Shown: positions 27,680 to 53,150, counted from the stretch's first letter. The stretch: DNA of 64,000 bases from a bacterium (GCA_037200965.1 JBBCGK010000001.1:736001-800000), one strand, 5' to 3'. The notes: generated from the letters alone by a model not told the origin. Made by a program: numbers and translations.

Positions 27680-28025
27680 GCCAGGAGGTAGTTAGGTCCC
27701 GTCTTCCTCTTTATCTCGCCATCATCAGACATTGGATAGTATTTTATCACGGCGACGGTACGCTTCATATCGCCCGCTGCGTTTACGCCTCGTTTATGCG
27801 CTGATACCGGGCTCGCTCGCGCAACACCTGCCTCGAAAGAGGACGGATAGAAGCGAGCCCGATATCACCGCGCAAGCGACGCATACTCGTACCATATAGT
27901 CCGCGTTCTCCTATGGCAACTCTTAATGGTGTGGACTCGCGTATTCGCGCTCGCCGTCCTGCTATACTGAAAACCGTTCTGGTGTTGCGTACCAGCTCTA
28001 TTCCGGAGAACGGCATCCGTCGTTC

Positions 28026-31000
28026 ATGCTCTTCCTCCTTGTACGCACACTCATAAGACCGCATACGTCCCTTCGCGCCTTTCCTTCCTTGGCAGGGAAG
28101 GGCTTCCTGTTCTTGTTCGTGCTTTGGTCCTGTTCGATAAGCGCGCTGCCTGCATACGCGGCATGGGACGGACAGCCCTATGCGCCGGGCGCAACGCTTG
28201 ACCCGGAGTGCGGGCCGAGCGACTCTAATTGCAAGACGCTTGCGAGCGCGGACGCGACGACGCTTGAAGGCAGGTCCGGAAGCTATTACCTTGCCAACTC
28301 CTTCTCGACGACCTCGGCCGCGTATTTCCTTTCTGACAATCCGGGGCTCTCGTTCGCGACCACCAGTTCTGACTATTGGCTCGCGCATCGGTCCACGTCC
28401 GACCTTCCGGAAGGCTCGCGCCTCTACTACACCGATGCCCGCGCGGACGCGCGCATTCTTGCGACAACTACTCTTGCGAATATCATCTCGCTTCCGGGCT
28501 TGTCTTTGTCCGCGTCGCAGCTTACTGGCTTCGGTATTCCTTTCTACAATTTCTTTCACGCGACGACGACCGATGCGCTCGCGGAAGGTTCCCTGCATCG
28601 CTACTACAGCGACGTGCTCGCCCGCGGAGCGCTTGGCGTATCTGCCGGGGCTCTCGCGTATGACAGCGGCACGGGAATCCTTTCGGTTGCGGGCGGATAT
28701 ACGATTCCTTTATCAGCGTCCACGACGGAGTGGGGCGAGGCATATGACAACCGCATCACGTCGGCCTCGGCGCCTCTCACGATCGCGAACCGCGAGATAA
28801 GCCTCGGCATTGTTGATGCGGGGCACGGCGGCACCGGCCTCGCCTCGTACAATCCGGGCGCACTTCTGTATGCCGATGCCGACGGAAACCTCACGACGCT
28901 TTCGCCCGGTTCTTCCGGTACCGTGCTTAAGATCGCGGGCGGCGTCCCGACCTGGGGCACGGATCTTTCAAGCGGCGGCGGGGGAGGAGCCGTAGCCTGG
29001 GCGACGACATCCGACAGCCTCGCGATCTATCCGATGGACAGCACGAACGTCGTCATCGTGGGCGCAAGCGCGACATCGTCGGCGACGAGCGTCTTTGAAG
29101 TGCACGGGAGGTCGTATTTCACGACCAATGTCGGCATCGGCACGACTTCTCCGCTCTCGGCGCTTTCCGTCGCGGGGAGCGGCTTCTTCACCGGCAACCT
29201 GACTTCGGCCAATATCACCGCCACCGGAACGCTTTCAGTCTCGGGTGCTGGCACGTCGACGTTTGCCGGGCCGTTCTTAGCAGGGAATCTTGCGGTCGCC
29301 GGACTTCCCGCGGGCCTTATAAAGGCCGGGGCGGGCGGGTATCTCCGGGGCGCCGTCGCGGGAACGGATTATTTCGATCCTGCCGCGTTCGGTTCAACTT
29401 TCTATTCTTTTTTTCACGCGACGACGACCGATGCGCTTGCCGAAGGTTCGGTGCATAAGTATTGGAGCGATACGCTCTTCGACAACCGCCTCTCCGCGAC
29501 CACGTCGCTTCCGGGCCTCTCTTCCATCGGTTCGTATACCGGGCTCATCGGCGCGAACAACGGTTCCATGTACCAAATCGCCACTTCGACCAACTTCGTG
29601 ACATCGATCGCGGCCGCATACCCGCTCTCCGTTTCCGGACCAGCCGGGGCGGTGACAATCTCGACCGCGCTCGCTACCACCACATTCCAGCACTCATACG
29701 GTTCCGCGCAGATCGGACAAATCATCCTTGCCACTTCAAGCGCGGCAACGAGTAACGGCATCACGGTGGGGCAGACCATCACGAACTCCGGCGGCGTCTT
29801 CACGTTCGCTCCGGCGGTATCCGTATCGAACATCCCCAATGCCGCCCTGCAGAATTCCGCCGTCACCGTCAACGGCACCCTGATCCCGCTTGGCGGCTCG
29901 GGTACTGTCGCCGCCGCTTCTTCCACGCTCCTTGGAGATAACAATACTTTCTCGGGCGGCAATACGTTTTTGAGCACCATCACCGGCTCCGTTTCTGGCA
30001 ATGCCGGCACCGTTACGAACGGCGTATACACGACTACTTTCGGCGGCCTTTTCGACAACCGCCTCTCCGCGACCACGTCGCTTCCGGGCCTTACGGCGGT
30101 TTCGTCCGGCCTCACGGGCGTCCTTAAGGCGGCGGCGGGCTCTCTCTCGGCGGCGGCACCGGGGATCGATTTCGAAAATCCGCTTTCGTTCCTCTATCCG
30201 CTCGCGCGCACCGCAAACAGCGTAAGCCTTGCCTTCGGGACGACAACTTCAAACACTTGGGGAGGAACCCAGACTTTCACCAACAACCCGATACTCGGCA
30301 CTCTCACCGGTCTCTTCTACGGAAACAACGGATCGCTTGCGGCGACGGCGACATCCTCCGTCACCAGCGGCACCGGCATCGGCTTTTCAGGCACGCCGGG
30401 AGCGCTTGTCGGCGGTACTCCGCTTACGATTACGAATACCGGCGTGACGTCGAATATTGCCGGGACCGGCATCAGCGTCTCGGGCGCGACCGGCGCCGTT
30501 ACGATAAGCGCGGCGAACGTGCCGAACAGCGCGCTTGAGAACTCGACGATCGGGCTTGCTTCGGGCGACTCCTCCCTTACGGTTTCCGGCTCGCCCGCCT
30601 CTCTTGGAGGCTCGCTTTCCGCCTCCCTTAACACCGCGCATCCGAATACGTTCACCGCGCTTCAGCAATTCAGCGCAAATGCGTCGACGACGGGAATCTC
30701 TTCTTCGTATGCGTCCTCGACCAAAGCCTTCCTTGGAAGCCTGTCGATAGGGAATCTGACCGGCATCCTGCGCGCGGCCGGGGGTGCCGTATCGGCCTCG
30801 CTCGTGTCCCTCGCTTCCGACGTGACCGGAGTGCTCGGCGTTATAAACGGCGGGACGGGATGGGATTCGATACAGTCCGGCAGCATCCCGTACGGAAACG
30901 GCGCCGGGGCGCTCGCCACCACGAGCCCGGGAACCAACGGGCAGACGCTCGCGCTTGTCGCCGGAGTTCCGGCCTGGATCGCGACGACAACCGCGGGCAC

Positions 31001-34000
31001 CGGCCTTACGTATTCCGGCGGCAGCTTCAATGTGAATACGGCGCAGAATGTCGCGAAGCTTTCGAACCTCACGGGGAACGGATTCGTCAAAACTATAAAC
31101 GGCGACGGCACGCTTTCGGTCGATACCAATACCTACCTCGCCTCCATTGGTCCCGCAGGACAAAGCCAGAGCGGTCCTGCGGTCGCCATTGCCTCCTCGA
31201 CCGATTCTGCGACCGGCCTTATCTCGGGCGTCGTGATAACCGGAAGCGCGAATACGCTTACCTGGAAGGCCGTGCTCTCCGGCGTCTTGAGTGCCGCAAA
31301 CGGCGGCACCGGATCGACGACGCTTTCGGGAATCCTCAAAGGAAACGGCACGGGAGTGCTTATGACCGCGGTTCCGGGAACCGACTATCAGGCGGCGGGG
31401 AACTATCTCACCGCGCTTACCGGTGACATCTCCGCGTCGGGTCCGGGTTCCGCCGCCGCGACGCTCGCGACCGTGAACGCGGATACGGGGTCGTTCGGGG
31501 GTTCGACCGCCATCCCGACTTTTGTCGTAAACGGGAAAGGGCTCGTCACATCCGCGGGCACCGCGGCGGTTATCGCGCCCGCGGGAACGCTCACCGGAAC
31601 CGTACTTGCTTCGAACATCCTCGCTTCTTCGCTTACATCCGTCGGAACGCTCGGCACGCTCTCCGTTTCCGGCCAGGCTTCGCTTGCGGGCGCGAGCTCG
31701 ACCGCCTTTTCCTCGTCCTATGCGTCTTCGACCAGTGCGTTCTTCGGAAACCTGTCCGTCGGAAGTCTTTCGGGAATACTGCGCGCGACCGCCGGAGCGG
31801 TCTCCGCGGGCGCGGTGAATCTTGCCTCGGAAATATCCGGGATGCTCGGCGTCGCAAACGGCGGCACGGGCGCGGGCTCGTTTGCGGCAGGCTCCCTCAT
31901 CTACGGAAACGGTACGGGCCCGCTTCAGAGCGCCGCGACCTCGTCCGTTTCAAACGGCGCTGGCATCTCGGTCTCGGGCGCCGCCGCCGTGGTCGGGAGC
32001 GGGGGACTCACCATCACCAACACGGGCATCACGTCCGTCACGCCGCAATTCGGTGCGGCCATCAGTAACGGCGGGCTAACCGTCGCGTCCTCGACGGCGG
32101 GCACCGACTTTTCGATAACCGGATCGGGAAGCACGATCACGTTCAATCTTCCGACCGCGTCTGCCGCAAACCGCGGCTTGCTTTCCTCCGCCGACTGGAG
32201 CGCCTTCAGCGCCAAGCAGGGCGCGCTTACGTTCGCGTATCCGCTCCAGAATAGCGCGAATACCGTATCGCTCGCCTTCGGGACGACGACCGCGAATACC
32301 TGGGGACCGGTGCAAACTTTCACGAACGTTCCCGTGCTCGGCACTCTTTCGGGAATCATTTATGGGAATAACGGATCGCTTGCCGCGACCGCCACTTCGA
32401 CGCTTGGCGTCGCGCTTGCGGACACTACGGGCTCGCTCCCGGTCGACCGGGGAGGCACCGGATCGACGACGCTCGGCGGCATTTTGAAGGGAAACGGAAC
32501 TTCCGGCATCGCGACCGCCGTCCCCGGCATCGATTATCAGCCCGCCGGGAGCTATCTCACCGGCAACCAGACGGTTACGCTTTCGGGCGACGTCTCGGGA
32601 AGCGGCGCCACTTCGATCACGACCGCGATCGGGGCGGGGAAGGTGACGAATGCGATGCTCCTGGGCGCTATTGCCGCCGCGAAGCTCATCGGAACCGATA
32701 TCACGACCGTCGGGACGATCGTAAGCGGCGTGTGGCAGGGCTCCGTGATCGGATCAGCCTACGGCGGGGCGGGAGCCGTAAGCGGAATACTCAAAGCGAA
32801 CGGTTCCGGCAACGTCTCCGCCGCCTCCGCCGGAACCGACTACGTCGCTCCGAACTCCTCGCCCACATTTGCGGGCCTCACGCTCCTAAGCGCGCTTCCC
32901 GTCGCAAGCGGCGGGACGGGCTGGAGCGCGATACAGTCCGGCAGCATCCCGTACGGAAACGGTTCCGGTGCCCTCGCGACTACCTCGAGCGGGGCGGCGG
33001 GGAGCGTGCTCGCGCTTGTCGCCGGAGTTCCGGCCTGGGTCGCGACGACCACGTTCTCCACGGGCCTTACGTATACGGCCGGAAGCGTGACCGTGAACAC
33101 CGCACAGAGCATCGCGAAGCTTTCGAACCTGACAAGCAATGGATTCGTCAAAACTATAAACGGCGACGGCACGCTCTCGGTCGATACGAACACCTACCTC
33201 GCCTCCATTGGTCCCGCAGGACAAAGCCAGAGCGGCCCCGCAATTACGATCGCAACTTCGACCGCGGGAACCGACATATCGGTGACGGCTTCCGGCAATA
33301 CGATCACGTTCAACCTCCCGACCGCATCTGCCGCAAACCGCGGCTTGCTTTCCTCGTCCGATTGGACGACATTCAACGGCAAAGTGTCGACCGGCGCGTT
33401 CACATCCTCCGGCCTCACCCTTTCGACCGGTAAGCTTCTCGGAAGAAGTTTGGACGGTACGGGAGCGGCCGAAGAGATAACGGTCGGGAGCGGCCTCTCT
33501 CTTTCTGGCGGGACTCTCTCCGCGTCTGGGAGCGGCATCAGCGCACTTGGTCCTTCGGGACAAACCCAAAGCGGTGCGACGGTCACCATTGCCACCTCGA
33601 CAAGCCTTGCAAACGGCGTCACGTCCGCGCTTGTGGTCGTGGGTTCTTCGAACACGCTTATGTTCACTCCTTCCGTTTCCGGCGTGCTCACGGTTCCTGG
33701 GGGAGGCACCGGTGCCGGTACGCTCACGGGACTCGTTTCGGGAAACGGCACGAACGCTTTCACCGCGACCGCGAACGGCGCAAACGGCCAGGTGCTTGCT
33801 ATGTCCGCCGGAGCGCCGACCTGGGTCGCAACGACCACGTTCTCGACCGGACTTACGTACACGGCGGGCACGGTGACGGTCAACACGGTGCAAAGCGTCA
33901 CGAAGCTTTCGAATCTCGCCACGAACGGATTCGTGAAAACGATCAACGCCGACGGCACGCTCTCGATCGACACCAACACCTATCTCACCTCTGCCCTCAC

Positions 34001-35105
34001 CTCAATAGGTCCCGCCGGTCAGGTACAGAACGGCCCGGCTATCGTTATCGCCACCTCGACGACCGCATTTAACGGCATTACGGTGGGCGACACGATAACC
34101 GGTTCGGGGAACACGCTTACGTGGAAGCCCAGCTGGAGCGGTTCGCTCAGCGTCCCTGGCGGCGGCACGGGGGCGACTTCGTTCGGGCAGGGCTGGATAT
34201 TCTCAAGCGGCGGCACGGGTGCCCTTGCTGCCTCGACAAGCCCGACCGTGAACTATCTTATCGCCACCTCGACGACCGCCGCTTCGATCTTCAATTACCG
34301 CGTCGGCATCGGTACGAACGCCCCCGCAACCGCGCTTGACGTGAACGGCGATATCACGATCGAGACCTTGACCTGCAACACATCGCTCGTCGGACTGGGC
34401 ACCGACGCGAACGGCAAGATCTATTGCAAGAGCGTCGTAGGTTCCGATGAGCGGCTTAAGTCGAATATCGAAAGTCTCGGCGACGAAAATGGCCTTGCTC
34501 TCATAGACTCGCTGCGCCCTGTCTCCTATGACTGGAAGGACCCGAACGTGTATGGCGGCATGTCCGGCCTCCAGTACGGGTTCATCGCGCAGCAGGCGCT
34601 TTCTGCCGCGCCGACTCTCGTCGGCACGACGTCGCCGACAGAACTGACGCCCGACGTCACGTACACGTTCAACTATTTCGGCCTCATCGCGCCCCTCGTG
34701 AAAGCGACACAGCAGCTTGACGCGCGGTTCGGCGCGATTGCTTCAACGAGCGCGGATGCGTCTCCGACGTCTTTTGCTCAGGCATTCTTTGGCCGTCTTC
34801 GGGAATGGTTCGCCGACGCGGCAAACGGAATCGAGGACTTCTATGCGAATCGTGTCCATACTTCGCAACTATGCTTAGCAGTCTCCGGCGGGGAAGAGGA
34901 ATGCTTTACGGGCGACGAGCTGAAAGCCCTTAAGGAGAAAGCCGGACAGCATGACAAGGTTCCGCCGCCCGGCATCGGGCCTGTCATCATCGAGGATGTT
35001 CCGCCGCCGGACACCACTGCCTCATCGTCCGAGCCGGAATCAGAAGCCGCTGCGGCTATGCCAGTGCCTCCCGATCCCGCTACTGACTTACCCGCGCCCG
35101 AGTAA
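28026..35105 (+). CDS. giant (2359 aa) secreted surface protein, Gly/Thr/Ser-rich repeat region, C-terminal intramolecular-chaperone (peptidase S74-like) domain and Pro-rich tail
   Basis: Signal-peptide-like N-terminus, then an AAWDGQPYAPGATLDPECGPSDSNCK module. Long near-identical internal repeats. C-terminal VVGSDERLKSNIESL…LRPVSYDWK…GFIAQQ resembles the autoproteolytic tail-fibre chaperone domain, followed by a PPPG/PPPD tail. Confidence 0.8.
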   Translation: MLFLLVRTLIRPHTSLRAFPSLAGKGFLFLFVLWSCSISALPAYAAWDGQPYAPGATLDPECGPSDSNCKTLASADATTLEGRSGSYYLANSFSTTSAAYFLSDNPGLSFATTSSDYWLAHRSTSDLPEGSRLYYTDARADARILATTTLANIISLPGLSLSASQLTGFGIPFYNFFHATTTDALAEGSLHRYYSDVLARGALGVSAGALAYDSGTGILSVAGGYTIPLSASTTEWGEAYDNRITSASAPLTIANREISLGIVDAGHGGTGLASYNPGALLYADADGNLTTLSPGSSGTVLKIAGGVPTWGTDLSSGGGGGAVAWATTSDSLAIYPMDSTNVVIVGASATSSATSVFEVHGRSYFTTNVGIGTTSPLSALSVAGSGFFTGNLTSANITATGTLSVSGAGTSTFAGPFLAGNLAVAGLPAGLIKAGAGGYLRGAVAGTDYFDPAAFGSTFYSFFHATTTDALAEGSVHKYWSDTLFDNRLSATTSLPGLSSIGSYTGLIGANNGSMYQIATSTNFVTSIAAAYPLSVSGPAGAVTISTALATTTFQHSYGSAQIGQIILATSSAATSNGITVGQTITNSGGVFTFAPAVSVSNIPNAALQNSAVTVNGTLIPLGGSGTVAAASSTLLGDNNTFSGGNTFLSTITGSVSGNAGTVTNGVYTTTFGGLFDNRLSATTSLPGLTAVSSGLTGVLKAAAGSLSAAAPGIDFENPLSFLYPLARTANSVSLAFGTTTSNTWGGTQTFTNNPILGTLTGLFYGNNGSLAATATSSVTSGTGIGFSGTPGALVGGTPLTITNTGVTSNIAGTGISVSGATGAVTISAANVPNSALENSTIGLASGDSSLTVSGSPASLGGSLSASLNTAHPNTFTALQQFSANASTTGISSSYASSTKAFLGSLSIGNLTGILRAAGGAVSASLVSLASDVTGVLGVINGGTGWDSIQSGSIPYGNGAGALATTSPGTNGQTLALVAGVPAWIATTTAGTGLTYSGGSFNVNTAQNVAKLSNLTGNGFVKTINGDGTLSVDTNTYLASIGPAGQSQSGPAVAIASSTDSATGLISGVVITGSANTLTWKAVLSGVLSAANGGTGSTTLSGILKGNGTGVLMTAVPGTDYQAAGNYLTALTGDISASGPGSAAATLATVNADTGSFGGSTAIPTFVVNGKGLVTSAGTAAVIAPAGTLTGTVLASNILASSLTSVGTLGTLSVSGQASLAGASSTAFSSSYASSTSAFFGNLSVGSLSGILRATAGAVSAGAVNLASEISGMLGVANGGTGAGSFAAGSLIYGNGTGPLQSAATSSVSNGAGISVSGAAAVVGSGGLTITNTGITSVTPQFGAAISNGGLTVASSTAGTDFSITGSGSTITFNLPTASAANRGLLSSADWSAFSAKQGALTFAYPLQNSANTVSLAFGTTTANTWGPVQTFTNVPVLGTLSGIIYGNNGSLAATATSTLGVALADTTGSLPVDRGGTGSTTLGGILKGNGTSGIATAVPGIDYQPAGSYLTGNQTVTLSGDVSGSGATSITTAIGAGKVTNAMLLGAIAAAKLIGTDITTVGTIVSGVWQGSVIGSAYGGAGAVSGILKANGSGNVSAASAGTDYVAPNSSPTFAGLTLLSALPVASGGTGWSAIQSGSIPYGNGSGALATTSSGAAGSVLALVAGVPAWVATTTFSTGLTYTAGSVTVNTAQSIAKLSNLTSNGFVKTINGDGTLSVDTNTYLASIGPAGQSQSGPAITIATSTAGTDISVTASGNTITFNLPTASAANRGLLSSSDWTTFNGKVSTGAFTSSGLTLSTGKLLGRSLDGTGAAEEITVGSGLSLSGGTLSASGSGISALGPSGQTQSGATVTIATSTSLANGVTSALVVVGSSNTLMFTPSVSGVLTVPGGGTGAGTLTGLVSGNGTNAFTATANGANGQVLAMSAGAPTWVATTTFSTGLTYTAGTVTVNTVQSVTKLSNLATNGFVKTINADGTLSIDTNTYLTSALTSIGPAGQVQNGPAIVIATSTTAFNGITVGDTITGSGNTLTWKPSWSGSLSVPGGGTGATSFGQGWIFSSGGTGALAASTSPTVNYLIATSTTAASIFNYRVGIGTNAPATALDVNGDITIETLTCNTSLVGLGTDANGKIYCKSVVGSDERLKSNIESLGDENGLALIDSLRPVSYDWKDPNVYGGMSGLQYGFIAQQALSAAPTLVGTTSPTELTPDVTYTFNYFGLIAPLVKATQQLDARFGAIASTSADASPTSFAQAFFGRLREWFADAANGIEDFYANRVHTSQLCLAVSGGEEECFTGDELKALKEKAGQHDKVPPPGIGPVIIEDVPPPDTTASSSEPESEAAAAMPVPPDPATDLPAPE

Positions 35106-36162
35106 GGGGGCCGAAGTATCCTGCGGCCGGAGCTATACCGTTTGCGACCTGATATTCCGCAAGCGCGGCCTGCGTGACCGGGCCGAAGTATCCCGTCGCT
35201 CCGGCTGCCGCGAGCGCGCGGGCTCCCGGCCCGCTGTTTTTCCCTATGAGAAATGCCTGAAGCGCGGTCACGTCGCTTCCGCGCGCGCCGACGATCAGGT
35301 CGCGATAGAAAGTTGAGGTGGTCACCGCCGTGTTTCCCGCTGCTTCAAGCGCGTCATCGATCGCGGAGGGAAGGTTCATGCCAAGCGCGAGCGCTCCGAG
35401 GAAGGTTCCGCGATAGTTTCGCACGAGCATTTCGGCATCCTCGTCTTCGTCTTCGTCATCGGCATCCTTAAGCGCGTCTTCGACCGCATCGATGCGCTCG
35501 TCGAGCGTGAATTCGCGGGCTAGGCGAGGGAACGGATCGGTCGCCGTCCTTCCGTGGCGTATCTCGAAATGGAGATGGGTTACTCCGCCTTTCGCGTCCC
35601 CGGTGTCTCCCACATACCCGATGAGGTCGCCTTTCTTGAGCACCGAGCCTCTCTTAAGCCCTTCGGCGAATTTGTCGAGATGCATGTACGCGAATGTCTC
35701 GTCCCCGGGATTCGCCGTATAGACATAGTTTCCGGCGCTCGAGCCCGTGCCCATGCTCGTCACCACCGCGTCGGTGGGGGAGACGATGTAGTCGTCCTTG
35801 GGCGCAAGGATGTCCTCGCCCTCGTGCTTGCGCGCCCCGCCGTCGCGCGGGTCGCCGAAGTTCGGCGTGATGTCCACGAGCGAAACGCCAAGCAGCACGG
35901 GTATCGGAAGGTTCTTGACGGGATCGTCGTCAAGCGCGTCGATGGCCTTCTGCGCCGCGGAAGATATGCCGCGGCGGGACGTCGCGCGTTCGATCGTCTC
36001 CTGGCTCGCGCTCCCTTCCGAGGAATTGCGCCAATAGTCGTATGTTCTCGAATACTGCGGCCGTGTCGCCGCCTGTGCGGCCGGCGGGCAAGCGGCCGCG
36101 AAGACGAACGCGCTGATAAAGGAAACGGCAAGCACCGCCCGTGCCCGGTAAGCGTATGTCAT
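35080..36162 (-). CDS. M23 family metallopeptidase with C-terminal peptidoglycan-binding repeats
   Basis: Signal peptide, LytM motifs HEGEDI…GDTGDAKGGVTHLHFEI, and two PG_binding_1-like repeats (…TALQAFLI…GYFGPVTQAAL…). Confidence 0.8.
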   Translation of the reverse strand: MTYAYRARAVLAVSFISAFVFAAACPPAAQAATRPQYSRTYDYWRNSSEGSASQETIERATSRRGISSAAQKAIDALDDDPVKNLPIPVLLGVSLVDITPNFGDPRDGGARKHEGEDILAPKDDYIVSPTDAVVTSMGTGSSAGNYVYTANPGDETFAYMHLDKFAEGLKRGSVLKKGDLIGYVGDTGDAKGGVTHLHFEIRHGRTATDPFPRLAREFTLDERIDAVEDALKDADDEDEDEDAEMLVRNYRGTFLGALALGMNLPSAIDDALEAAGNTAVTTSTFYRDLIVGARGSDVTALQAFLIGKNSGPGARALAAAGATGYFGPVTQAALAEYQVANGIAPAAGYFGPLTRARVSQ

Positions 36163-36214
36163 GCGCGAAGTATAGCCCGGATCTCCGTGAGATATGCGTG
36201 AAGAAAAGGGGAGC

Positions 36215-36745
36215 TTACCGCAATTTTTTAAATTCCCGGATTATCGGAGTATGCTCGCCTCGCGTTTCAGCACGTTTCAACTGTTGTAATTCGCCTATAT
36301 CGAAGACGCTGTCGAATCCGTCTTCAACCACAGGAGGAGTACGGATAAGCATATTGTGCATGCGCCTGATCGCGTGTTCGGGAACCATAGGTTCACGTAA
36401 ACGATTACGTTCGAGGGCGACCTCCATGGGAACGGCGGCCACCATGCCTTGCACCTTGCTTGCGCCATGTTCGCGGGCGAAGCGAATAAACTCCTTGCGT
36501 TCGAAGTCTTTGGCGAATGTCGCATCGAATACGACCGTCTCCCCGCGCCGCAACGCATCGGCGGTTCTTCGATGTGCTTCTTCCCACACTTCCTTGTTTT
36601 TTGACTGCTCAGTCGCATCGCCAAGCATTTCGAATCGTATATCATCGGGGGAGATGTAGGTATAGGAATTTTCTTCCGCAAAAGGTTTCAGAATTGTCGT
36701 TTTCCCGGAACCGGGAACGCCGATGCCCATAATAAGCTTTGCCAT
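36215..36745 (-). CDS. P-loop ATPase/kinase (AAA_33 / polynucleotide-kinase-like)
   Basis: Walker A GIGVPGSGKTT near the N-terminus and Walker B VVFDATF. The start is chosen at MAKLIMG; a longer ORF runs to 36823. Confidence 0.65.
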   Translation of the reverse strand: MAKLIMGIGVPGSGKTTILKPFAEENSYTYISPDDIRFEMLGDATEQSKNKEVWEEAHRRTADALRRGETVVFDATFAKDFERKEFIRFAREHGASKVQGMVAAVPMEVALERNRLREPMVPEHAIRRMHNMLIRTPPVVEDGFDSVFDIGELQQLKRAETRGEHTPIIREFKKLR

Positions 36746-36960
36746 GTTCTTAAGTATACCTGTGGTCAAAGTCTTATCCCCACGCGAATCATAGGAGGCC
36801 GCGCGCCTGCGGCTATACTTCAAGTACCACGGTGTTGCGCACCGAGTCTCTCCGGACCCGAAAGGGAGTGGTCCGCGTCATGCGCACCCAAACGCTCAAG
36901 CGATTCAGTCTTTATAAACATATCTCCGCGAAGCGGGGCTAACTTCATATATACCGGCGT

Positions 36961-37500
36961 ATGCGCCGCACTCGTCCTATGGCAGCTAAGAATGAAAAGA
37001 TGGATATAGATGTCTCCGAGCCAGTGCCCGAAGCGCCGTGGCCTCCGGCCGCGCCGGGACCAAGGAACGGGCGCAGGATGCGGCGCGGATGGTCCAAGAT
37101 TCTCGCCGCGCTCATCCTGGTCCTCGTCCTCGCCGCGCTTGCGTACTATTTTGTGCAATACCAGCGCCTCAGCCGCGACCCGGCGGTGGTCGCGCGGGCC
37201 GAAGACGCGAAAGTCATACAGGAACTTTCGAAGGTGATGGTGGTCCCGAACGATCCGAGCCCCGTCATTGCGACCGTGTCCGACAAAAGCAAGCTTGCCG
37301 ACCAGCCTTTCTTCGCGCAGGCGCAAAACGGCGACCAGGTCATCATCTTCCCGGTTTCGATGAAAGCCGTGCTCTATCGTCCGTCGGCCCGAAAAATAAT
37401 CGACATCGCGCCGCTTGCAACCGGTGCCTCGGCGTCTGCCGCCGCCCCGTCTCCCGTACCCGCAAAGGCGAAGGCGGCCGCGACGAGCACGACTCCTTAA
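36961..37500 (+). CDS. hypothetical membrane-anchored protein (first gene of a 5-gene + strand operon)
   Basis: One TM helix and an Ala/Pro-rich C-terminus. The antisense ORF is R-rich. Confidence 0.45.
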   Translation: MRRTRPMAAKNEKMDIDVSEPVPEAPWPPAAPGPRNGRRMRRGWSKILAALILVLVLAALAYYFVQYQRLSRDPAVVARAEDAKVIQELSKVMVVPNDPSPVIATVSDKSKLADQPFFAQAQNGDQVIIFPVSMKAVLYRPSARKIIDIAPLATGASASAAAPSPVPAKAKAAATSTTP

Positions 37501-37504
37501 ACGC

Positions 37505-38689
37505 ATGAATATCCGACTCGGCACCATTTCGCTCGTCGCACTCATTTTCTTTTCCTTCGCGCTTCCCGCGTTCGCGTCGGAAACATCCGGAACGGTGCTC
37601 GATTCGCAGAAGTTCGGATGGGGCGACAAGATCGGGTGGATCAATTTCGCACCGACCGACGGCTCCGAGTACGTCGGCCTCGTGATCACCGACAGCGCGG
37701 TGACGGGCTTCGCGTGGAGCAGGGATTTCGGATGGATACGGTTCGATCCGCCGAATTCCGGACAGGGGGTTACGAACACGCCGGAAGGCGTTCTTGGCGG
37801 TTCCGCATGGGTCGCGTCGCTCGGATGGATATCGATGGAGGGCGTAACGATAAATCAAAACGGCGAGTTCACGGGCATCGCCGGAGTCGCTGGCACCGAT
37901 ACCGCGCGTATTTCCTTCGATTGCTCGCGGTGCGGCGTGCAGACTGACTGGCGCCCGGCATCCGTGCGAGGCGGCGGCGGAAACAACGGGGGAGGCAGCG
38001 GCAACAACGGGCGTTCCGGCAGTTCCGTTCCGGACGCATCCTCGCCAGAACCCTCCTCAAGCGGTGGCGGGATCGGTATCGTGCCGTTCTTTCAGAACTT
38101 ATTTACGGGCATCTTCGGCGCAGCTCCCGGGACGAACGCCGGTACCGCTGGCGCGGCGGGCGCTGCCGTTCCGAACAGCCTGTTCGACATTTCGCTCGCG
38201 CTTGAAAAGAGCGTCGTGCCCGCAGGCGAGCCGCTCGTCGCGCTCGTCTCGTTCGCGAACTTCGGAAAGGTTACTACCGCGGCCGACCTCGCCTTCTCCA
38301 TCGTCAACGGCGAGGGAACCGTATTCGCGACATCGACCGCGCGCACGAGCGTCGAAACCGAGAACCTCGTGCGGCAGACGTTTGCTACGACGGCATTCTC
38401 TCCCGGAACGTACTGGATAAAGCTCAGGGTCACGTACGGTTCGCCCGTCATCACCGAAGACTTCAACCAGCAGTTCACAATCACGGCCGCGCAGACGTTC
38501 GCCGGGCGGTGCGGGTTCCCGTGGCCGCTGTCGTATGCCGTGGATCACATCGCGTTCCTCGCCTGGTTCGGCTGTGTATTCCCGTGGATCATCATTATCG
38601 TCACGATACTGATGATCGTCGCTCTCTTCTATTATCTTGTTCATCCGCGTGGAAAGGACCGGCATGCGGCCCGCGCTTTCTCCCGATGA
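37505..38689 (+). CDS. secreted protein with triplicated GW-containing repeats, Gly/Ser-rich linker and C-terminal TM anchor
   Basis: Signal peptide MNIRLGTISLVALIFFSFALPAFA. Repeats FGWGDKIGWINF / FAWSRDFGWIRF / SAWVASLGWISMEG. The C-terminal TM segment is hydrophobic. Confidence 0.6.
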   Translation: MNIRLGTISLVALIFFSFALPAFASETSGTVLDSQKFGWGDKIGWINFAPTDGSEYVGLVITDSAVTGFAWSRDFGWIRFDPPNSGQGVTNTPEGVLGGSAWVASLGWISMEGVTINQNGEFTGIAGVAGTDTARISFDCSRCGVQTDWRPASVRGGGGNNGGGSGNNGRSGSSVPDASSPEPSSSGGGIGIVPFFQNLFTGIFGAAPGTNAGTAGAAGAAVPNSLFDISLALEKSVVPAGEPLVALVSFANFGKVTTAADLAFSIVNGEGTVFATSTARTSVETENLVRQTFATTAFSPGTYWIKLRVTYGSPVITEDFNQQFTITAAQTFAGRCGFPWPLSYAVDHIAFLAWFGCVFPWIIIIVTILMIVALFYYLVHPRGKDRHAARAFSR

Positions 38690-39693
38690 AGTACCTGCGC
38701 ATCACGATAACGGCAGGACTTCTGTTTCGCGGTCTTGCGCTCCTGCTCGTCATTCTCGCGGTCTCGCTTACGATCCACGAGTGGGCGCTCATGGCCGAGC
38801 GGGACCACCTGTACCAAGCGGCCGCGAACGAAGCCCTCGATGAGCGGCTCGAGTCTGTCGGCGACGGGCTCACGGAGGTTTTCGCGAGCGCTCGTGAAGG
38901 GCTCCGGTCGCTTTCGTCCGTACTCGCGGTCTATTCGGGAGTATCTGACGGCCGCGCGGGCGCCGAACAGGCGCTCCGCATCGCGCGGGACGCCCACCCC
39001 GAGTATTATTTCGTTCGTTATATAGGCGCGGACGGGTCCGCGTTCGTCACGCTTTCGCCGCCCGGCATGTCGGTGGGGGACGAGACGGTATTCGATGCCG
39101 GATTCGACGGCCTCCTGCAGGACGCGCAAAATTCAATCACCGGGGACATTCTCGTGTCGGGGCTCTCGTGGTATCCCGTCATCGGCGGCACGAAGATTCC
39201 GCTCGTGTATGCAATTACGCCGGTTGTGGCGGCAGGGAAAACGTACGGATATCTCGAAGTGGCGCTTGATATACGCAACTCGTTCACGGCGGTGACGCAG
39301 GCGCAGCGCGCCGAAGACGTCCTGTTCCTTCTGGATAGCGAAGGGAAATACCTTGTCGCGCCGCACGGTACGCCAGTTCCGGAAGATACGGTCACGAGCC
39401 GGTATCCAAAAGAGGTGGTTGACCACCTGTACGGGCCGGACACAGTCGGTGCCTTCACGTACGGCGATCGGGTCTTCGCGTATGAGCACTTGCGGACGAC
39501 CGGCGTCGGCATGCGGTCGGGTGATCCCGAATTTTGGGTGCTCGTCAGCGTGTCCGATACCCGCTCCGTCTTCAGCGCGGCGCGGCGCGCGAGAAACGAA
39601 TCGGTCTTTTCCCTGGCCGTGTTCCTTCTGCTTGCGGGTCTCGCCGGCCTCTTGGTGTACCGCCTGCGCATGATGCTGCACACTCATCTATGA
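38686..39693 (+). CDS. membrane protein with periplasmic Cache-like sensor domain and no output domain
   Basis: ATGA coupling. An N-terminal TM and a C-terminal TM bracket a ~270-aa extracytoplasmic domain. Confidence 0.5.
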   Translation: MKYLRITITAGLLFRGLALLLVILAVSLTIHEWALMAERDHLYQAAANEALDERLESVGDGLTEVFASAREGLRSLSSVLAVYSGVSDGRAGAEQALRIARDAHPEYYFVRYIGADGSAFVTLSPPGMSVGDETVFDAGFDGLLQDAQNSITGDILVSGLSWYPVIGGTKIPLVYAITPVVAAGKTYGYLEVALDIRNSFTAVTQAQRAEDVLFLLDSEGKYLVAPHGTPVPEDTVTSRYPKEVVDHLYGPDTVGAFTYGDRVFAYEHLRTTGVGMRSGDPEFWVLVSVSDTRSVFSAARRARNESVFSLAVFLLLAGLAGLLVYRLRMMLHTHL

Positions 39694-40187
39694 AGCGGAT
39701 CCTGAAGCTGTCGGCGGGCCTGGGTGCGGTCCTGCTGTGCGCGGGTATCGTTCCAGCATCCGTACATGCGGCGAGCGTGGCGCTTTCCATCCCCGACCGG
39801 TACGCGCAAGTGGATCCCGACGACCGTTTTTACTACCAGCTTAACGTCCTGTATCCGGAAAACGTCCAGCGGAGGGACCTCACCGTCACTTACCGCGTCG
39901 AGGAGGGGCAGGCGACGATCGTCAGCGGCCAGTACCTGCGGGCAGTCGAGACGCAGGCATCCTTCTCCGATTACATCGTCATTCCGACCGACGCCCGGGA
40001 AGGCCTCCATACGATAGAGATCGCGGTCACCGACGGCGACAAGCCGCTCGCGCAGGTGAGCGGAAGCTTCCAGGTCAATCCGCAGGAAGACTGGGTCATG
40101 ATCTACTTCTCGATACTTCTTGCCGCCGTGCTGCTGGTCGGCGTCGGCCTGTTCGTCGAGATCCTTATCGTGTCCCGCCGCGCATGA
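39690..40187 (+). CDS. secreted hypothetical protein with C-terminal TM anchor
   Basis: ATGA coupling and signal peptide MKRILKLSAGLGAVLLCAGIVPASVHA. Confidence 0.5.
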   Translation: MKRILKLSAGLGAVLLCAGIVPASVHAASVALSIPDRYAQVDPDDRFYYQLNVLYPENVQRRDLTVTYRVEEGQATIVSGQYLRAVETQASFSDYIVIPTDAREGLHTIEIAVTDGDKPLAQVSGSFQVNPQEDWVMIYFSILLAAVLLVGVGLFVEILIVSRRA

Positions 40188-40291
40188 CTTGTCCACACCG
40201 CGAATGCTTGAACGGGACAGGTGCTGCTAGACTCAAGAGTGTTCCGGTGTTGCGCACCGCATCTGTCCCGGGGACGATTAATTCTCGTCTC

Positions 40292-43282
40292 ATGCGCACC
40301 ATCTTCACCTCTCCTTTGCTAGCGTTCGCGGGACGCTTCACCGCGGTTTTCTTTTTCGTATTTGCAGCAAACGGTATCGTCGGTTTTCCCGCCGCGCATG
40401 CGGCATGGGACGGTAATCCGTACGAGCCCGAGGAAACACTCGATCCGGAATGCTCGCCGAATCAGGGGCAGTGCCGTATCACGCAGCCCGTCAGCGCCGG
40501 AGAGAGCGTACCGGCAGGCTCGCTTCTCTATACCGACGGTACGGATTCATGGACGACGCTTCCCATCGGCAGCGACGGCAAGGTGCTCAAGATAAGCGGC
40601 GGTTCGGTCGTCTGGGGAGACGATAACGGCGGCATCTCGTACAGCGCATCCGAACAGGGGCTGCACCTTGATGCGGGCACGCACGTGCTCTCTATCACGC
40701 TTGACGGCTCGACGCTCTCCGCGTCCGGAAGCGGACTCCGGCTTGCGGCCGCCTATCCCGGTCAGGCATCCATTACGACGCTCGGTACCATTACGACCGG
40801 CACGTGGCATGGTTCCGCAGTAGCTCCGGCCTATGGCGGTACGGGCGCGTCGTCAGCTCCCGCAAACGGCCAGCTTCTCATCGGCAACGGATCGACGTAT
40901 ACGGTCGCGAACGCGAGCGGCTCGGGCGGCATACAAATCACGAACGGTTCGGGATCGCTTGGCATCGGCCTTTCCATAAGCGGATTGTCGGCAGTCTCAA
41001 GCGCCGCGAACGGCGATTATCTCGCGCTCTACGATGACAGCGCGGGGGCGAACAGGAAGATCAGCATCAGCGACCTGTTCGCGAACGTTATCGGCTCTCT
41101 TAATTTCCAAGGCACGTGGGATGCGGATGCGAACAGCCCGTCCCTTTCCGACGGCATGTGCACGGCAAGCGAAAACGGATACTTCTATATCGTCGGCACG
41201 TCCGGAGCGACGACTCTGGGCGGCGTGTCCTCATGGGACGTGGGCGACTGGCTTATCTGCGACGGCACGGGCTGGGGCAAGGTCGCGGATACGAGCGCCA
41301 TCGCGAGTGTGTTCGGGCGCACCGGCGCGGTCACTGCTCAGAGCGGGGACTATACCGGCGACCAGATCATCAATGTCGCGGCGGGCACGATCGCCTCGAC
41401 GAACGTGCAGGGCGCCATTAACGAGCTCGCAAGCGAGAAAGAAGCGGCGATAGCGTCGGGCCTTACGACCCAGTACTGGCGCGGCGACAAGACGTGGCAG
41501 ACCTTGAATACGCTCGCGGTGGCCGAGAATCCCGCCCACCTCTATTACACCGACGCCCGCGCGAGAAACGCGTTTTCTTCGGGCAGTGCATCGCTTTCGT
41601 ACGATTCCTCGACCGGCGTCATCGCCGTTACGGGCGGATACAGCATTCCGGAATCGGGGACCATCGAAGGGGATACGCTCGTCTGGGACGGATCGAACTG
41701 GGTTCCGACCGAGGGCGCGATGTCGTTCTCTTTGTCCACCGGCCTTCTCTCGATCGATGGCACCGCCTCGTCTACCGACCTTTATATCGCGGATGATGCC
41801 ATCATAGCCTCCGCCGATATCGGATCGCTTTCCGCCGATTCGCTCTCGCTTTCCGCCGCCCTTGGCGCAGGGTCAGGCGGTACCGGCATCACGAGTCCTG
41901 TCTCGGCCGGAATTCTTATCGGTACGCAGGGAGGCGGAGCGTGGCAGCAGGTCGCGACCTCGACGCTCCGCATCGCGCTTGCCGATACGACCGGAACCCT
42001 TTCGGTCGTCAAGGGCGGTCTTGGTCTCACTGCCGCGCCTTCGTTCGGGAATCTCCTCATGGGTAACGGTTCGGGCGGCTATACTTCGGTCGCGACTTCT
42101 TCGCTCGGCCTTACGTTCTCTTCGATCGCGGGGACGCTCGGGGTTTCCGCGGGAGGAACCGGCGTAGTTTCCGCGCCTTCATTCGGGGAGCTCCTGCTTG
42201 GAAACGGCTCAGGAGGATATGCGCTCGCCGCCACCTCGACTCTCGGTCTCAATCTCTCCTCGCTTACCGGAACCCTTGGCGTCGCCGCAGGCGGTACCGG
42301 AGCGGCGAGTCTTGGCCAAGGATGGCTCTATTCGACCGGCGGCGGCATCGCGCTCTCCGCGTCCACGTCGCCGACCGTGAACTACCTTCTCGCCACCTCG
42401 ACGACGCAAGCATCCGCGATTGCCTACCGTCTCGGCGTCGGGAGTACGACGCCGCTTGCGACCCTTGCGGTTAAGGGTGCGGGAACCGGCGCGGGCGTCA
42501 CGCTTCAGACGACCGACAGCGCCGACATCGCGGGCCTTACGGTTCTCGACAAGGGATTCGTCGGCATAGGCACGACATCTCCGGTGGCTGCGCTTGCGGT
42601 GAGCGCGGCGGCCGGCGTCGCGCCGTTCGCGGTGGGTTCGTCGACGGGGGGAATCAAGCTCACCGTCGCCGCGAACGGCTTCGTCGGCGTCGGCACCTCA
42701 AGCCCTACGTATCCGCTCGACGTGCGGGGAGATGTCGGCGGAACGGTCGCGCGTTTCCAGACTACGACAAATTCGCTCTTCTGCCTCCTCTCCTCGATTA
42801 CCGGGCTTTTGAGTTGCGCATCGGACGAGCGGCTCAAGAAGGACATTACGCCGCTTGACGCGTCGACGCTCGACCAGGTCCTCGCGCTCAAGCCGGTTTC
42901 GTACCACTGGAAGACCGATGATTCTTCCGCCGGACTCAAGTATGGATTCATCGCGCAGGATGTCGAGAAGATATTTCCCGAACTCGTTTCCGCCGATCCC
43001 ACCACCGGCTACAAGTCCCTTTCCACCGGCGGCATGATGCCATACGTCGTGAAAGCTCTTCAAGAGCAGCAAGTCGAAATCGAGGATCTCAAGGCGCAGA
43101 TAGCGGTGCTTGCCGCTCATCTTCCGCATGTGTCCGGAGATGACGAAACTCCCGCACCGGTTCCTCCTTCCGGGCCCGAAGAGGAGGAAGGAAGCGTGAC
43201 CCCTCCTGTTCCTGAGGAGGAAGTTCCGGCTCCCGTACCGCCGACCGTGAATACTGACGATGCTCCGGTCGCAACTCCGTAG
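40292..43282 (+). CDS. giant (~1000 aa) secreted surface protein, paralogous architecture to 28026-35105 (shared N-terminal module, C-terminal S74-like chaperone domain, Pro-rich tail)
   Basis: Signal peptide MRTIFTSPLLAFA…AAHA|AWDGNPYEPEETLDPECSPNQGQC. C-terminal CASDERLKKDITPL…LKPVSYHWK…GFIAQD, a coiled coil, then PAPVPP repeats. An alternative ATGA-coupled start lies at 40184. Confidence 0.8.
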   Translation: MRTIFTSPLLAFAGRFTAVFFFVFAANGIVGFPAAHAAWDGNPYEPEETLDPECSPNQGQCRITQPVSAGESVPAGSLLYTDGTDSWTTLPIGSDGKVLKISGGSVVWGDDNGGISYSASEQGLHLDAGTHVLSITLDGSTLSASGSGLRLAAAYPGQASITTLGTITTGTWHGSAVAPAYGGTGASSAPANGQLLIGNGSTYTVANASGSGGIQITNGSGSLGIGLSISGLSAVSSAANGDYLALYDDSAGANRKISISDLFANVIGSLNFQGTWDADANSPSLSDGMCTASENGYFYIVGTSGATTLGGVSSWDVGDWLICDGTGWGKVADTSAIASVFGRTGAVTAQSGDYTGDQIINVAAGTIASTNVQGAINELASEKEAAIASGLTTQYWRGDKTWQTLNTLAVAENPAHLYYTDARARNAFSSGSASLSYDSSTGVIAVTGGYSIPESGTIEGDTLVWDGSNWVPTEGAMSFSLSTGLLSIDGTASSTDLYIADDAIIASADIGSLSADSLSLSAALGAGSGGTGITSPVSAGILIGTQGGGAWQQVATSTLRIALADTTGTLSVVKGGLGLTAAPSFGNLLMGNGSGGYTSVATSSLGLTFSSIAGTLGVSAGGTGVVSAPSFGELLLGNGSGGYALAATSTLGLNLSSLTGTLGVAAGGTGAASLGQGWLYSTGGGIALSASTSPTVNYLLATSTTQASAIAYRLGVGSTTPLATLAVKGAGTGAGVTLQTTDSADIAGLTVLDKGFVGIGTTSPVAALAVSAAAGVAPFAVGSSTGGIKLTVAANGFVGVGTSSPTYPLDVRGDVGGTVARFQTTTNSLFCLLSSITGLLSCASDERLKKDITPLDASTLDQVLALKPVSYHWKTDDSSAGLKYGFIAQDVEKIFPELVSADPTTGYKSLSTGGMMPYVVKALQEQQVEIEDLKAQIAVLAAHLPHVSGDDETPAPVPPSGPEEEEGSVTPPVPEEEVPAPVPPTVNTDDAPVATP

Positions 43283-43288
43283 CAGGTC

Positions 43289-44122
43289 TTGGTTTGGGAG
43301 CAGCGCGCCACGCTATTCATGAGATTGTCGTTCCCCATTCGTTTTTTGTTTGTTCTGCTCGCAGCGGCAGTCCTGTCGGGGCTGTCGGTTCCTATGGAGC
43401 GGGCTTTTGGCGCGAACCAGGAAGACGGTATCCGGGCGACAGCCGCGAGCCTCGTATCCCGCGTGGCGCCCGGCGGGACGCTCTCGTTCTCGCTCACGCT
43501 TCTTAACTTCGGCACGGCGCGCCGGGCCGATGTCGTCATCACATACCGGATACTCGATGCGGCGGGCGCCGAAGCCTATTCGCAGCAGGAGACCGTCGCG
43601 GTCGACACGACCGCGAGCGTTGTGCGGCACGTGGAAGTGCCGGGGACCCTCGCGCCCGGACGCTATACGCTCGAAAGCGAAGCGCGCTATCCCTTTCAGG
43701 AAGCGCCCGCCGTCTCCCGCTTCTCGTTCACCGTCGAGCGCGCGTATCTGGGCGTCTATATCACGGACTGGCTCCGATACGGCGGCCTCGCCCTTCTTCT
43801 GGCGCTCGCGTCGTTTATCGGCGGCCGGCTCCTCATCCGGGCCAGGGCCCGCCGCGCCGTGCTCCATGACTACGCGGACAAGCCCAAAGACGAACGCATC
43901 TATTACGAAATCATAAGCGACACCGTAAGCCAGATGCGCCAGCGGGCGGGCGACCGGGCGCTTGAGATCGCGGCGAAAACGAAGGGTCTTTCCATCGATT
44001 CCGATACCGGCAAAGTTCTCAAAATCACGGAGAACCCCGCGCAAGTCGTCGCGGCGCTCGTGTCCGGGTACGAAGCGGCGCTCGGGAAGAAGGTGAGCTT
44101 CGCGCTCAGAAAGAACGGCTGA
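43289..44122 (+). CDS. hypothetical secreted/membrane protein
   Basis: Signal-like N-terminus (MRLSFPIRFLFVLLAAAVL, internal start possible at 43319) and a TM segment. Confidence 0.45.
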   Translation: MVWEQRATLFMRLSFPIRFLFVLLAAAVLSGLSVPMERAFGANQEDGIRATAASLVSRVAPGGTLSFSLTLLNFGTARRADVVITYRILDAAGAEAYSQQETVAVDTTASVVRHVEVPGTLAPGRYTLESEARYPFQEAPAVSRFSFTVERAYLGVYITDWLRYGGLALLLALASFIGGRLLIRARARRAVLHDYADKPKDERIYYEIISDTVSQMRQRAGDRALEIAAKTKGLSIDSDTGKVLKITENPAQVVAALVSGYEAALGKKVSFALRKNG

Positions 44123-44140
44123 TCACGTAATCCATATTCT

Positions 44141-44524
44141 ATGAACCAAAAAACCATACTCATCGTCGAAGACGAAAAAGATATCAGGGAAGCGCTTCGG
44201 GACATGCTCGCCGACAAGGGATACCGCGTCCTTGAGGCCGGAAACGGGCGGGAAGGCGCGGCAAGCGCTCTTGCCGAGCACCCCGACCTCATCCTTCTCG
44301 ATCTCCTCATGCCCGAAGTGGATGGCATGACAGCGCTCGGACAGATCCGGGAGGATTCGTGGGGGAAGGGCGCATCCGTCATGATCCTCACGAACGTGAA
44401 CGCGAGCAGCGAACAGGTCGTCAAGGATATCGTGACGCACAAGCCGCTTGAATACCTCATCAAGTCGGACTGGAAGATCGCCGATGTCCTGAGGAAAGTC
44501 GAGCGGGTGCTCGCGGGGAAGTAG
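44141..44524 (+). CDS. single-domain response regulator (CheY-like receiver)
   Basis: ILIVEDE…ILLDLLMPEVDG… It is a paralogue of 8196-8579. Confidence 0.8.
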   Translation: MNQKTILIVEDEKDIREALRDMLADKGYRVLEAGNGREGAASALAEHPDLILLDLLMPEVDGMTALGQIREDSWGKGASVMILTNVNASSEQVVKDIVTHKPLEYLIKSDWKIADVLRKVERVLAGK

Positions 44525-44565
44525 CTTCCGCCATGGCGCCGTTTCTTGCTCGTTTCGGCCGCACC

Positions 44566-44606
44566 TATACGACAACGGACTCCGTGCGGAGTCCGTTGTC
44601 GTATAG
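44566..44606. terminator. 19-bp perfect inverted repeat hairpin between convergent genes
   Basis: UAUACGACAACGGACUCCG-ugc-CGGAGUCCGUUGUCGUAUA. Confidence 0.5.
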
Positions 44607-52800: not shown

Positions 52801-52833
52801 AGATTCGGGCAGGACACGGTATACTGGGGGTGA

Positions 52834-53088: not shown

Positions 53089-53150
53089 AGTATCGAAGCT
53101 GCGAGAACGCGATGCCCGCGTCGTCTCGCGGCATAAGCTGGTTTTCAATT

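Follow-up and report, generated by a model that had tools for sequence, protein, structure and literature searches.

On a 64,000-nucleotide (nt) stretch of a bacterial genome (GCA_037200965.1, JBBCGK010000001.1:736001-800000; hereafter the window), five open reading frames (ORFs) lie in a row on the + strand at 36961-43282. They encode four membrane proteins, here called G1 to G4 and collectively the cassette, and a secreted fibre of 996 amino acids (aa), G5, that carries a peptidase S74 domain. G5 is the second of two such fibres at the locus, the first being a 2359-aa protein encoded upstream. The host is probably a member of the Patescibacteria (candidate phyla radiation), an ultra-small bacterium. 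Gene boundaries were taken from the gene calls of the Logan source contig, and the fibre start also from NCBI record MEJ0053954.1 (Table 1). In the frames proposed for the ORFs, the G+C content at third codon positions is 0.73-0.81.

A conserved cassette beside S74 fibres

The earlier note on this DNA had read the five genes as a single polycistron, joined by successive ATGA stop/start overlaps at 38686, 39690 and 40184 and feeding into the fibre. All three ATGA tetranucleotides are present in the sequence, and the first two are true junctions: the gene calls give products of 394, 335 and 165 aa that end and start exactly there, and overlaps of 4-20 nt recur at G2/G3 and G3/G4 in the related loci L005, L126 and L128, and at G3/G4 in L002. 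The gap between G1 and G2 is only 4 nt. The four-base ATGA overlap is the commonest overlap type in bacterial operons, so these overlaps are unremarkable on their own; G1-G4 probably form one tightly packed, translationally coupled operon. The third ATGA is not the fibre start. Its ATG shares the reading frame of the fibre and lies 108 nt before the start at 40292, but it is not a junction, because the gene is called from 40292, the corresponding spacer between the G4-like gene and the fibre of L005 is non-coding (indels that are not multiples of three, and an ATGA out of frame and 110 nt from the called start), and the spacer in the window holds a conserved promoter-like element. Stop/start overlap is thus found at G2/G3 and G3/G4 and is absent at G4/G5, and the single ATGA-coupled polycistron has to be abandoned: the fibre begins 104 nt after G4 and has a promoter-like element of its own, which sits inside the 36 codons of spacer previously counted as fibre coding sequence. 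The start of G1, formerly placed at 36961, moves to 36979 in the gene calls, the earlier start adding six codons.

The two fibres share an N-terminal module and an S74 end, as had been proposed. G5 consists of a signal peptide (…AHA/AWDG), a Cys-loop N-terminal module, a Gly/Ser/Thr-rich body, the Peptidase_S74 domain and a Pro/Glu-rich tail, and it has the signal peptide, an 'AAWDGxPYxPxxTLDPEC' module and the stem before S74 in common with the 2359-aa protein. Peptidase_S74 (PF13884) scores 70.6 bits in G5 and 52 bits in the 2359-aa protein, against a cut-off of 22 bits. The catalytic motif SDxxxK, as defined in the passages of PMC10769870 that deal with it, stands at the start of each match (ASDERLK in G5, GSDERLK in the larger fibre); the Ser and Lys of the G5 motif SDERLK are S844 and K849 (996-aa numbering). 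The signal peptide and the N-terminal Cys-loop module (YxPGxTLxPxCxPxDxxC) recur together in the fibres of more than 12 loci. In the S74 family, the chaperone drives trimerisation and then cuts itself off; by analogy with the family, these fibres would trimerise and cleave themselves at SDERLK. NCBI names G5 a 'tail fiber domain-containing protein', and its matches to PHROG tail-fibre families cover the body and C terminus only.

The 2359-aa fibre contains several long internal repeats, including an '…GFVKTINGDGTLSVDTNTYL…' module present three times and an N-terminal 'FFHATTTDALAEGS' block present twice, which suggests that it grew by module duplication. A terminator-like hairpin follows it at 35218-35234. 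Between this fibre and G1, the - strand (35080-36823) encodes an M23 peptidase with a peptidoglycan-binding domain and an AAA_33 kinase-like protein. Both genes are found in the window only, with no counterpart at that place in relatives, in which the orthologous position of the first fibre is directly upstream of G1.

The conservation of this neighbourhood, which the earlier note had put forward as a check, was borne out in related metagenomic loci. The complete G1-G2-G3-G4 order is kept in L002, L005, L126 and L128, and L006 stops inside G2; identity to the window is 45-49% for G2 (46-53% in a second comparison) and falls to approximately 28% for G3. An S74 fibre lies directly beside the cassette in all five, upstream in L002, L005, L006 and L128 and downstream in L005 and L126. 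The partner fibre in relatives is therefore upstream at least as often as downstream, and the description of the cassette as feeding into the fibre does not hold. A wider survey was anchored on the GW domain of G2 (described below) and covered 39 species loci of GTDB with at least 2 kb of upstream flank, found through the GW gene only. At 11 of them, an S74 domain ends 300-1840 bp upstream of the GW gene on the same strand, and the remaining flank of GW loci held one strong S74 match in 511 kb; our ratio from these counts is a roughly 58-fold enrichment of S74 directly upstream of GW genes. A G1-like gene was found within 2.5 kb of the GW gene at 6 of 44 GTDB species loci, among them Kaiserbacteria L009, where the order is fibre, GW protein, G1-like protein. 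Across Patescibacteria there is thus a reduced set consisting of a fibre, a GW protein and sometimes a G1-like protein. The proposed functional tie between the small proteins and the fibre is supported by this adjacency (the window, 5/5 related loci and the upstream S74 genes of the survey) and by the promoter/leader element that they have in common.

Two of the related loci carry further features next to the cassette. In L126, the stretch directly upstream of G1-G4 (273-1863) holds a bAvd gene and a reverse transcriptase (RVT_1), a pair typical of diversity-generating retroelements; no template/variable repeat pair was found on the 13.8-kb L126 contig. In L002, the G4 orthologue is followed at 12690-13030 by a copy of the element (GGTGTTGTGCACC) and a truncated fibre signal peptide ('…FPVHATWNGSL', then a stop codon); judged by these two features, the segment is a decayed downstream fibre gene.

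Table 1 Features of the cassette, the two fibres and their surroundings in the window
Feature	Position	Strand	Description	Basis or remark
G1	36979-37500	+	173 aa, single-pass membrane protein	gene calls, transmembrane segment (TM) by hydrophobicity, homologues
G2	37505-38689	+	394 aa, signal peptide, GW barrel, linker, beta-sandwich, TM	
G3	38686-39693	+	335 aa, TM, dCache-like extracytoplasmic domain, TM	NCBI name 'cache domain-containing protein'
G4	39690-40187	+	165 aa, signal peptide, beta-sandwich, C-terminal TM	hidden Markov model cross-hits, hydrophobicity
G5, second fibre	40292-43282	+	996 aa, secreted	MEJ0053954.1
G6	43319-44122	+	267 aa	begins 36 nt past G5 stop; beyond interval of earlier note
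Stand-alone response-regulator receiver	44141-44524	+	127 aa	Response_reg, 70.6 bits
First fibre	28026-35105	+	2359 aa	fibre N-terminal module and S74 C terminus
G1-G4 promoter-like element and leader	36774-36843	+	exact 13-mer	same composite before G1 orthologues
Upstream ORF in G1 leader	36880-36942	+	20 codons	
Second-fibre promoter-like element and leader	40189-40258	+		equivalents before fibres of L005 and L126 and L002 fibre remnant
First-fibre (2359 aa) promoter-like element	27928-27993	+		
Divergent operon, candidate fibre-locus regulator	22434-27679	-	two-component genes and three others	
OmpR-type response regulator	27008-27679	-		
S-adenosylmethionine methyltransferase	26201-26896	-		
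ThiF-like	25018-26058	-		
184-aa protein	24480-25034	-	no Pfam match	
Multi-TM GAF histidine kinase	22434-24467	-		

A promoter-like element shared by cassette and fibres

The composite TTATCC(C/A)CAC-N27-29-CTATACT-N11-12-GGTGTTGCGCACC precedes G1 and both fibres. Its 13-mer, GGTGTTGCGCACC, is exact at 36831 (approximately 135 nt before G1) and at 40246 (33 nt before the G5 start), and is found with one mismatch (GGTGTTGCGTACC) at 27981-27993, 32 nt before the 2359-aa fibre; these are the sole matches with up to one mismatch in the window. With up to two mismatches there are seven matches against 1.7 expected, and 0 of 100 shuffles reached seven. Each of the three copies has (G/C)CTA(T/G/C)ACT 11-12 nt upstream and, 27-29 nt farther upstream, the TTATCC(C/A)CAC box, which is a variant before G5 and inverted before the large fibre. 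The G1 element reads TTATCCCCAC (36774-36783), N28, GCTATACT (36812-36819), N11 and GGTGTTGCGCACC (36831-36843), and that of G5 reads TTGTCCACAC (40189-40198), N27, GCTAGACT (40226-40233), N12 and GGTGTTGCGCACC (40246-40258). Before the 2359-aa fibre, the inverted GTCCACACC box (27928-27936) is followed by GCTATACT (27961-27968) and then by the one-mismatch 13-mer. In degenerate form, the core pattern of the element is CTAnACT-N11-12-GGTGTTGCGYACC.

The same composite stands before the G1 orthologues of L002, L005, L006, L126 and L128, as well as before the fibre genes of L005 and L126 and the fibre remnant of L002, and it has been kept even though the G1-G4 proteins are only approximately 28-64% identical among loci. 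We interpret it as a putative -10 box that has a regulator site upstream of it and is followed by a conserved 5' leader. Because the cassette and each fibre have their own copy, the locus would comprise at least three transcription units under common control rather than one polycistron. G5, G6 and the receiver gene probably make up one of these units (gaps of 36 and 18 nt). A scan of metagenome contigs for TACT-N11-12-GGTGTTGCGCACC returned 75 matches, all of them chance or conserved coding and none near G1, GW or S74 genes; the closest in context, L080, is a Rieske oxygenase/LysR locus.

The 13-mer can form an invariant hairpin, which was all that a consensus fold of four G1 leaders gave, with no covariation in that fold. 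A second, variable hairpin in the G1 leaders was seen by eye and in single-sequence folds, and in an alternative pairing the 13-mer could join a downstream (A)UGCGCAxCACC, which in G5 takes in the start codon. An Rfam search of 27600-44600 found nothing relevant. The leader of G1 also contains a short upstream ORF with the product MRTQTLKRFSLYKHISAKRG, ending at a stop codon, the first nine bases of which (ATGCGCACC) are identical to the G5 start. An ATGCGCA(G/C)CAC block is conserved in the alignment of G1 leaders, and similar short ORFs (MRSTF…) occur in those of L005 and L128. The upstream ORF may encode a leader peptide, or it may have been left behind by duplication of a fibre 5' end.

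Domains of the cassette proteins and their neighbours

By hydrophobicity, signal peptides or TM segments are found throughout the cassette, which places it in the envelope. The products had been described as a TM-anchored protein, a GW-repeat secreted protein, a Cache-like sensor and a signal-peptide protein; this is broadly correct, except that G2 and G4 each have a C-terminal TM as well and that G3 is a Cache-like domain between two TMs with a weak dCache_1 match. In searches with G1-G4, no Pfam match reached the curated cut-off of its family, NCBIfam, PHROG and PADLOC yielded no credible match, and sequence profiles of G1, G2 and G3 found nothing usable in the PDB. A role in anti-phage defence was also considered, and no PADLOC model matched any of G1-G6.

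G2 is composed of a signal peptide, a GW barrel at residues ~24-156 with two conserved cysteines, a Gly/Ser/Pro-rich linker of approximately 70 aa, a sandwich at ~226-327 and the TM, which is preceded by a conserved juxtamembrane Cys/Trp/Pro segment. In a first model, from an alignment of 10 sequences, confidence in the GW domain was low; AlphaFold2 with a 106-sequence alignment resolved residues ~24-156 as a closed, eight-stranded up-and-down beta-barrel, with a predicted local distance difference test score (pLDDT) of 91.7. The barrel is built from four to five repeats of G.AW....GWI.F and closed by the Cys pair. The confident part of the first model matches Fn3/CARDB-type sandwiches (RbmA, a CARDB domain and TRAP-beta), and the C-terminal domain is predicted to have such a fold.

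The GW domain defines a large family. Counted as clusters at 50% identity, its profile finds 6,747 representatives at E <= 0.001 and 875 at E <= 1e-30, and no Pfam model covering it was found. The domain usually comes directly after the signal peptide and is joined in other proteins to PKD, cadherin-like, Ig-like, TSP3, CarboxypepD_reg or peptidoglycan-binding domains, or to a stalk and C-terminal TM. GW-bearing GTDB loci mostly carry Patescibacteria labels (Kaiserbacteria, Paceibacterota, Saccharibacteria, Nomurabacteria and others). The 'handle' barrels of hemophilin, HpuA, the TbpB C-lobe and NHBA, and the YceI/avidin-type barrels, are eight-stranded too, and we do not claim GW as a member of either; in contrast to the Gram-negative handle barrels, which belong to surface lipoproteins and haemophores, the GW barrel is repeat-built, closed by a Cys pair and mostly found in Patescibacteria.

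G1 has a basic cytoplasmic N terminus, a TM at residues ~40-60 and an outer domain of approximately 110 aa, as judged by hydrophobicity, with a conserved extracytoplasmic stretch of approximately 70 aa (VP..P.ATV.D...L..Q.FF..A.nGD....AVLYRP). No Pfam match to LytR_C (PF13399) was obtained in G1, and its relatives P0037, P0039 and P0040 carry LytR_C after the G1-like domain, so that the two are neighbours and not one domain. We considered G1 as an anti-sigma factor and did not adopt this assignment: the NCBIfam match is weak (E 0.002, 18 bits against a cut-off of 100 bits) and no sigma factor gene lies nearby.

G3 matches dCache_1 (PF02743) weakly, at 20.1 bits against a cut-off of 45 bits, and the match is placed between the two TMs; three of five orthologues match (best E 5e-8). 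No cytoplasmic output module (kinase, HAMP, MCP or cyclase) was found: G3 ends 10-15 residues past its second TM, and in all five orthologues the end lies within about 10 residues of it. The beta-sandwich of G4 is homologous to the C-terminal domain of G2 and to G6, as profile cross-hits indicate; on this evidence the three are paralogous, each combining an Ig-like domain with a membrane anchor.

In G6, a signal peptide is followed by this same sandwich, a TM and, on the cytoplasmic side, a conserved domain of approximately 90 aa. A G6-type gene is always followed by a stand-alone receiver gene (window 43319-44524, L024 4109-6052, L130 9860-11574), the receiver of L024 being 59% identical to that of the window, which suggests that the G6 cytoplasmic domain talks to the receiver. 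Protein P0019 of L130 is a G6-type module fused to a GW barrel, and this fusion therefore links G2-type with G6-type proteins. Upstream of the first fibre lies the divergent operon of Table 1. It is also found beside the cassette in L128 and, without the methyltransferase, beside a protein with the fibre N-terminal module and the GW-G6 fusion in L130. Orthologues of its OmpR regulator occur in L014 (73% identity; order regulator, GW gene, fibre), L006 and L002. The ThiF-like, methyltransferase and 184-aa genes form a trio inside this two-component operon.

Proposed docking and sensing, and alternative readings

Physical docking, signalling and the direction of regulation are what we infer from the gene structure, synteny, shared cis-element and domain folds observed here. 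On sequence and synteny, we put the chances at about even that the cassette is an envelope module, co-regulated with Sec-exported and self-cleaving S74 fibres, which it would dock, present or sense. Folding of S74 fibres is guided by their own chaperone domain and requires no separate assembly protein. The fibres would be exported by Sec, trimerise through S74 and shed it, and a membrane platform formed by the cassette would dock and present them. Once the signal peptide has been removed, the N-terminal Cys-loop module leaves the fibre without an anchor and therefore must bind something on the cell; the ectodomains of G2, G1 and G4 are obvious docking candidates because they are adjacent, co-regulated and membrane-anchored. 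The candidate partners would be the G2 barrel, held on a flexible stalk with an Ig-like domain and TM, together with G1 and G4, and the output-less G3, G6 with its receiver and the OmpR/histidine-kinase operon would relay events at the surface to the shared promoter.

Several observations weigh against this docking module. A role in regulation alone would account just as well for the Cache-like domain, the receiver and the nearby two-component system. A downstream fibre is missing from L128, and in L126 the upstream place of a fibre is taken by the reverse-transcriptase element. G3 and G4 are found in the closest relatives only, and a homologue search with G3 by word index returned the query alone, which is a limit of that index. 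No fibre is adjacent at 28 of the 39 GW loci, and 78 of 145 representative GW proteins are without a membrane anchor, so that the GW barrel is a general surface module rather than a dedicated fibre partner. Finally, action of the shared element as DNA cannot be separated from action as RNA, because the element is invariant.

A purely regulatory role is the main rival, and we regard it as possible, if on balance doubtful. The cassette would then be mainly for signalling, with G3, G1 (of anti-sigma-like topology) and G6 with its receiver modulating the kinase and the OmpR regulator that control the fibre promoter, as YycH and YycI act on WalK. YycH and YycI are membrane proteins that tune WalK, and G3 shares the TM-double-PDC/Cache-TM topology of sensor kinases and chemoreceptors; unlike these it has no kinase, HAMP or MCP output, and its Pfam matches are below the gathering cut-off. 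The dCache_1 matches of G3 and its orthologues, the weak anti-sigma match of G1, the receiver that follows G6 in the window, L024 and L130, the OmpR/kinase operon or its regulator near the locus in the window and five related loci, and the conserved box approximately 28 nt upstream of the -10-like hexamer, a possible activator site, all argue for it. However, every domain match falls below its curated cut-off, G2 and G4 have no sensor-like features, the most widely conserved set (fibre, GW and G1-like) includes no Cache protein, and the locus has no sigma factor gene beside it. Signalling and anchoring can also both hold.

We think it unlikely that the cassette proteins are independent surface proteins or adhesins that merely cluster with the fibres in a variable island, the promoter reflecting general envelope co-expression; this is a weaker rival than signalling. 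GW barrels occur in combination with adhesin-type domains of many unrelated kinds, most GW genes lie away from fibres, and the locus is plastic, with the M23 and AAA_33 genes inserted in the window, the fibre lost in L002 and a retroelement in L126. Against such an island stand the G1-G2-G3-G4 order and its overlapping junctions, kept in related loci, the adjacent fibre kept at 6/6 loci, the enrichment of S74 directly upstream of GW genes, and a cis-element that within the window occurs at the fibres and G1 only. A prophage or tailocin remnant, in which the fibres are true tail fibres and the small proteins their assembly chaperones or adaptors, would agree with the PHROG matches and NCBI name of G5, but we rejected it as highly improbable: the neighbours are cellular (two-component system, M23 peptidase, tRNAs and a glycosyl hydrolase) with no other phage genes nearby, the fibres have Sec signal peptides, for which virion proteins have no need, the chromosomal surroundings are kept from species to species, G1-G4 and G6 had no PHROG match, and no viral relative was found for the GW domain in IMG/VR viral contigs, for G2 in GenBank phages, for the fibre N-terminal part in either, or for the GW barrel fold in BFVD at E <= 0.001.

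Returning to the docking module, its fullest form would be a complete contact organelle of an episymbiont, in which phage-derived fibres are docked by their Cys-loop N termini on a platform of G1, the G2 barrel and G4, and in which G3, G6 with the receiver, and the kinase/OmpR pair sense host engagement and feed back on the element. We consider this distinctly improbable; if true, it would be an anchoring-plus-sensing system of host recognition without a described counterpart, with the GW barrel as its founding domain family.

The claim that the system has no obvious described counterpart stands for the cassette, which has no credible family match, and is too strong for the fibre: a described family of cellular S74 fibres is the S74 subgroup of the mosaic adhesive trimer (MAT) fibres of Bdellovibrio (Caulton et al. 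2024, PMC10769870). In the passages of that paper on MAT fibres, these are cellular proteins resembling phage tail fibres, with several paralogues per genome, in a bearer that lives by attachment to other bacteria. Each begins with a signal peptide and an N-terminal module that is conserved, continues as a long repetitive body and ends in an S74 chaperone/protease carrying SDxxxK, a layout similar to that of the fibres here. The conserved N-terminal domain is presumed there to bind an element of the producer's own surface, itself unidentified (PMC10769870). The present host belongs to a monoderm-type Patescibacteria lineage and is not a Gram-negative predator; its short Cys-loop module differs from the approximately 130-aa beta-rich domain of MAT as described in those passages; and it has a conserved membrane-anchored accessory operon and a common promoter element, whereas the MAT passages mention no accessory operon.

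The present fibres resemble phage spikes and fibres with a C-terminal intramolecular chaperone, such as the K1F endosialidase and the T5 L-shaped fibre (PF13884), in that their S74 domain scores above the Pfam cut-off and has the catalytic SDxxxK and that there are PHROG tail-fibre matches, and a small gene directly downstream of the fibre, as in phage fibre accessory genes, is a recurrent arrangement here too. In contrast to phage spikes and fibres, these have no virion context and carry Sec signal peptides, and the downstream genes encode membrane-anchored envelope proteins without relatives in PHROG or phage genomes. Literature searches, one of them covering the top-ranked 12 of 411 papers, listed no description of S74 fibres or of such a cassette in Patescibacteria. 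What appears to be new is the combination of cellular S74 fibres with an accessory operon, a barrel domain family and a shared promoter element, to which we assign a putative function. How Patescibacteria recognise and hold their hosts is largely obscure beyond type IV pili, and the cassette offers concrete candidates for the surface partner that would hold or control S74 fibres. The GW beta-barrel is a very large uncharacterised family of surface domains, and the invariant cis-element could be used to map the fibre regulon.

Two further observations concern the genomic surroundings. Also present in L002 (1-4478 and 19296-21188) are a cytochrome oxidase operon (COX1-4, UbiA) and genes for an RND efflux pump, which are unusual for Patescibacteria and may reflect the physiology of the lineage or a binning error. 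In the window, four tRNA genes (Met, Asp, Thr-GGU and Thr-CGU) are clustered at 52726-54254, where the GC content is approximately 53%, compared with 60-63% around the fibre locus.

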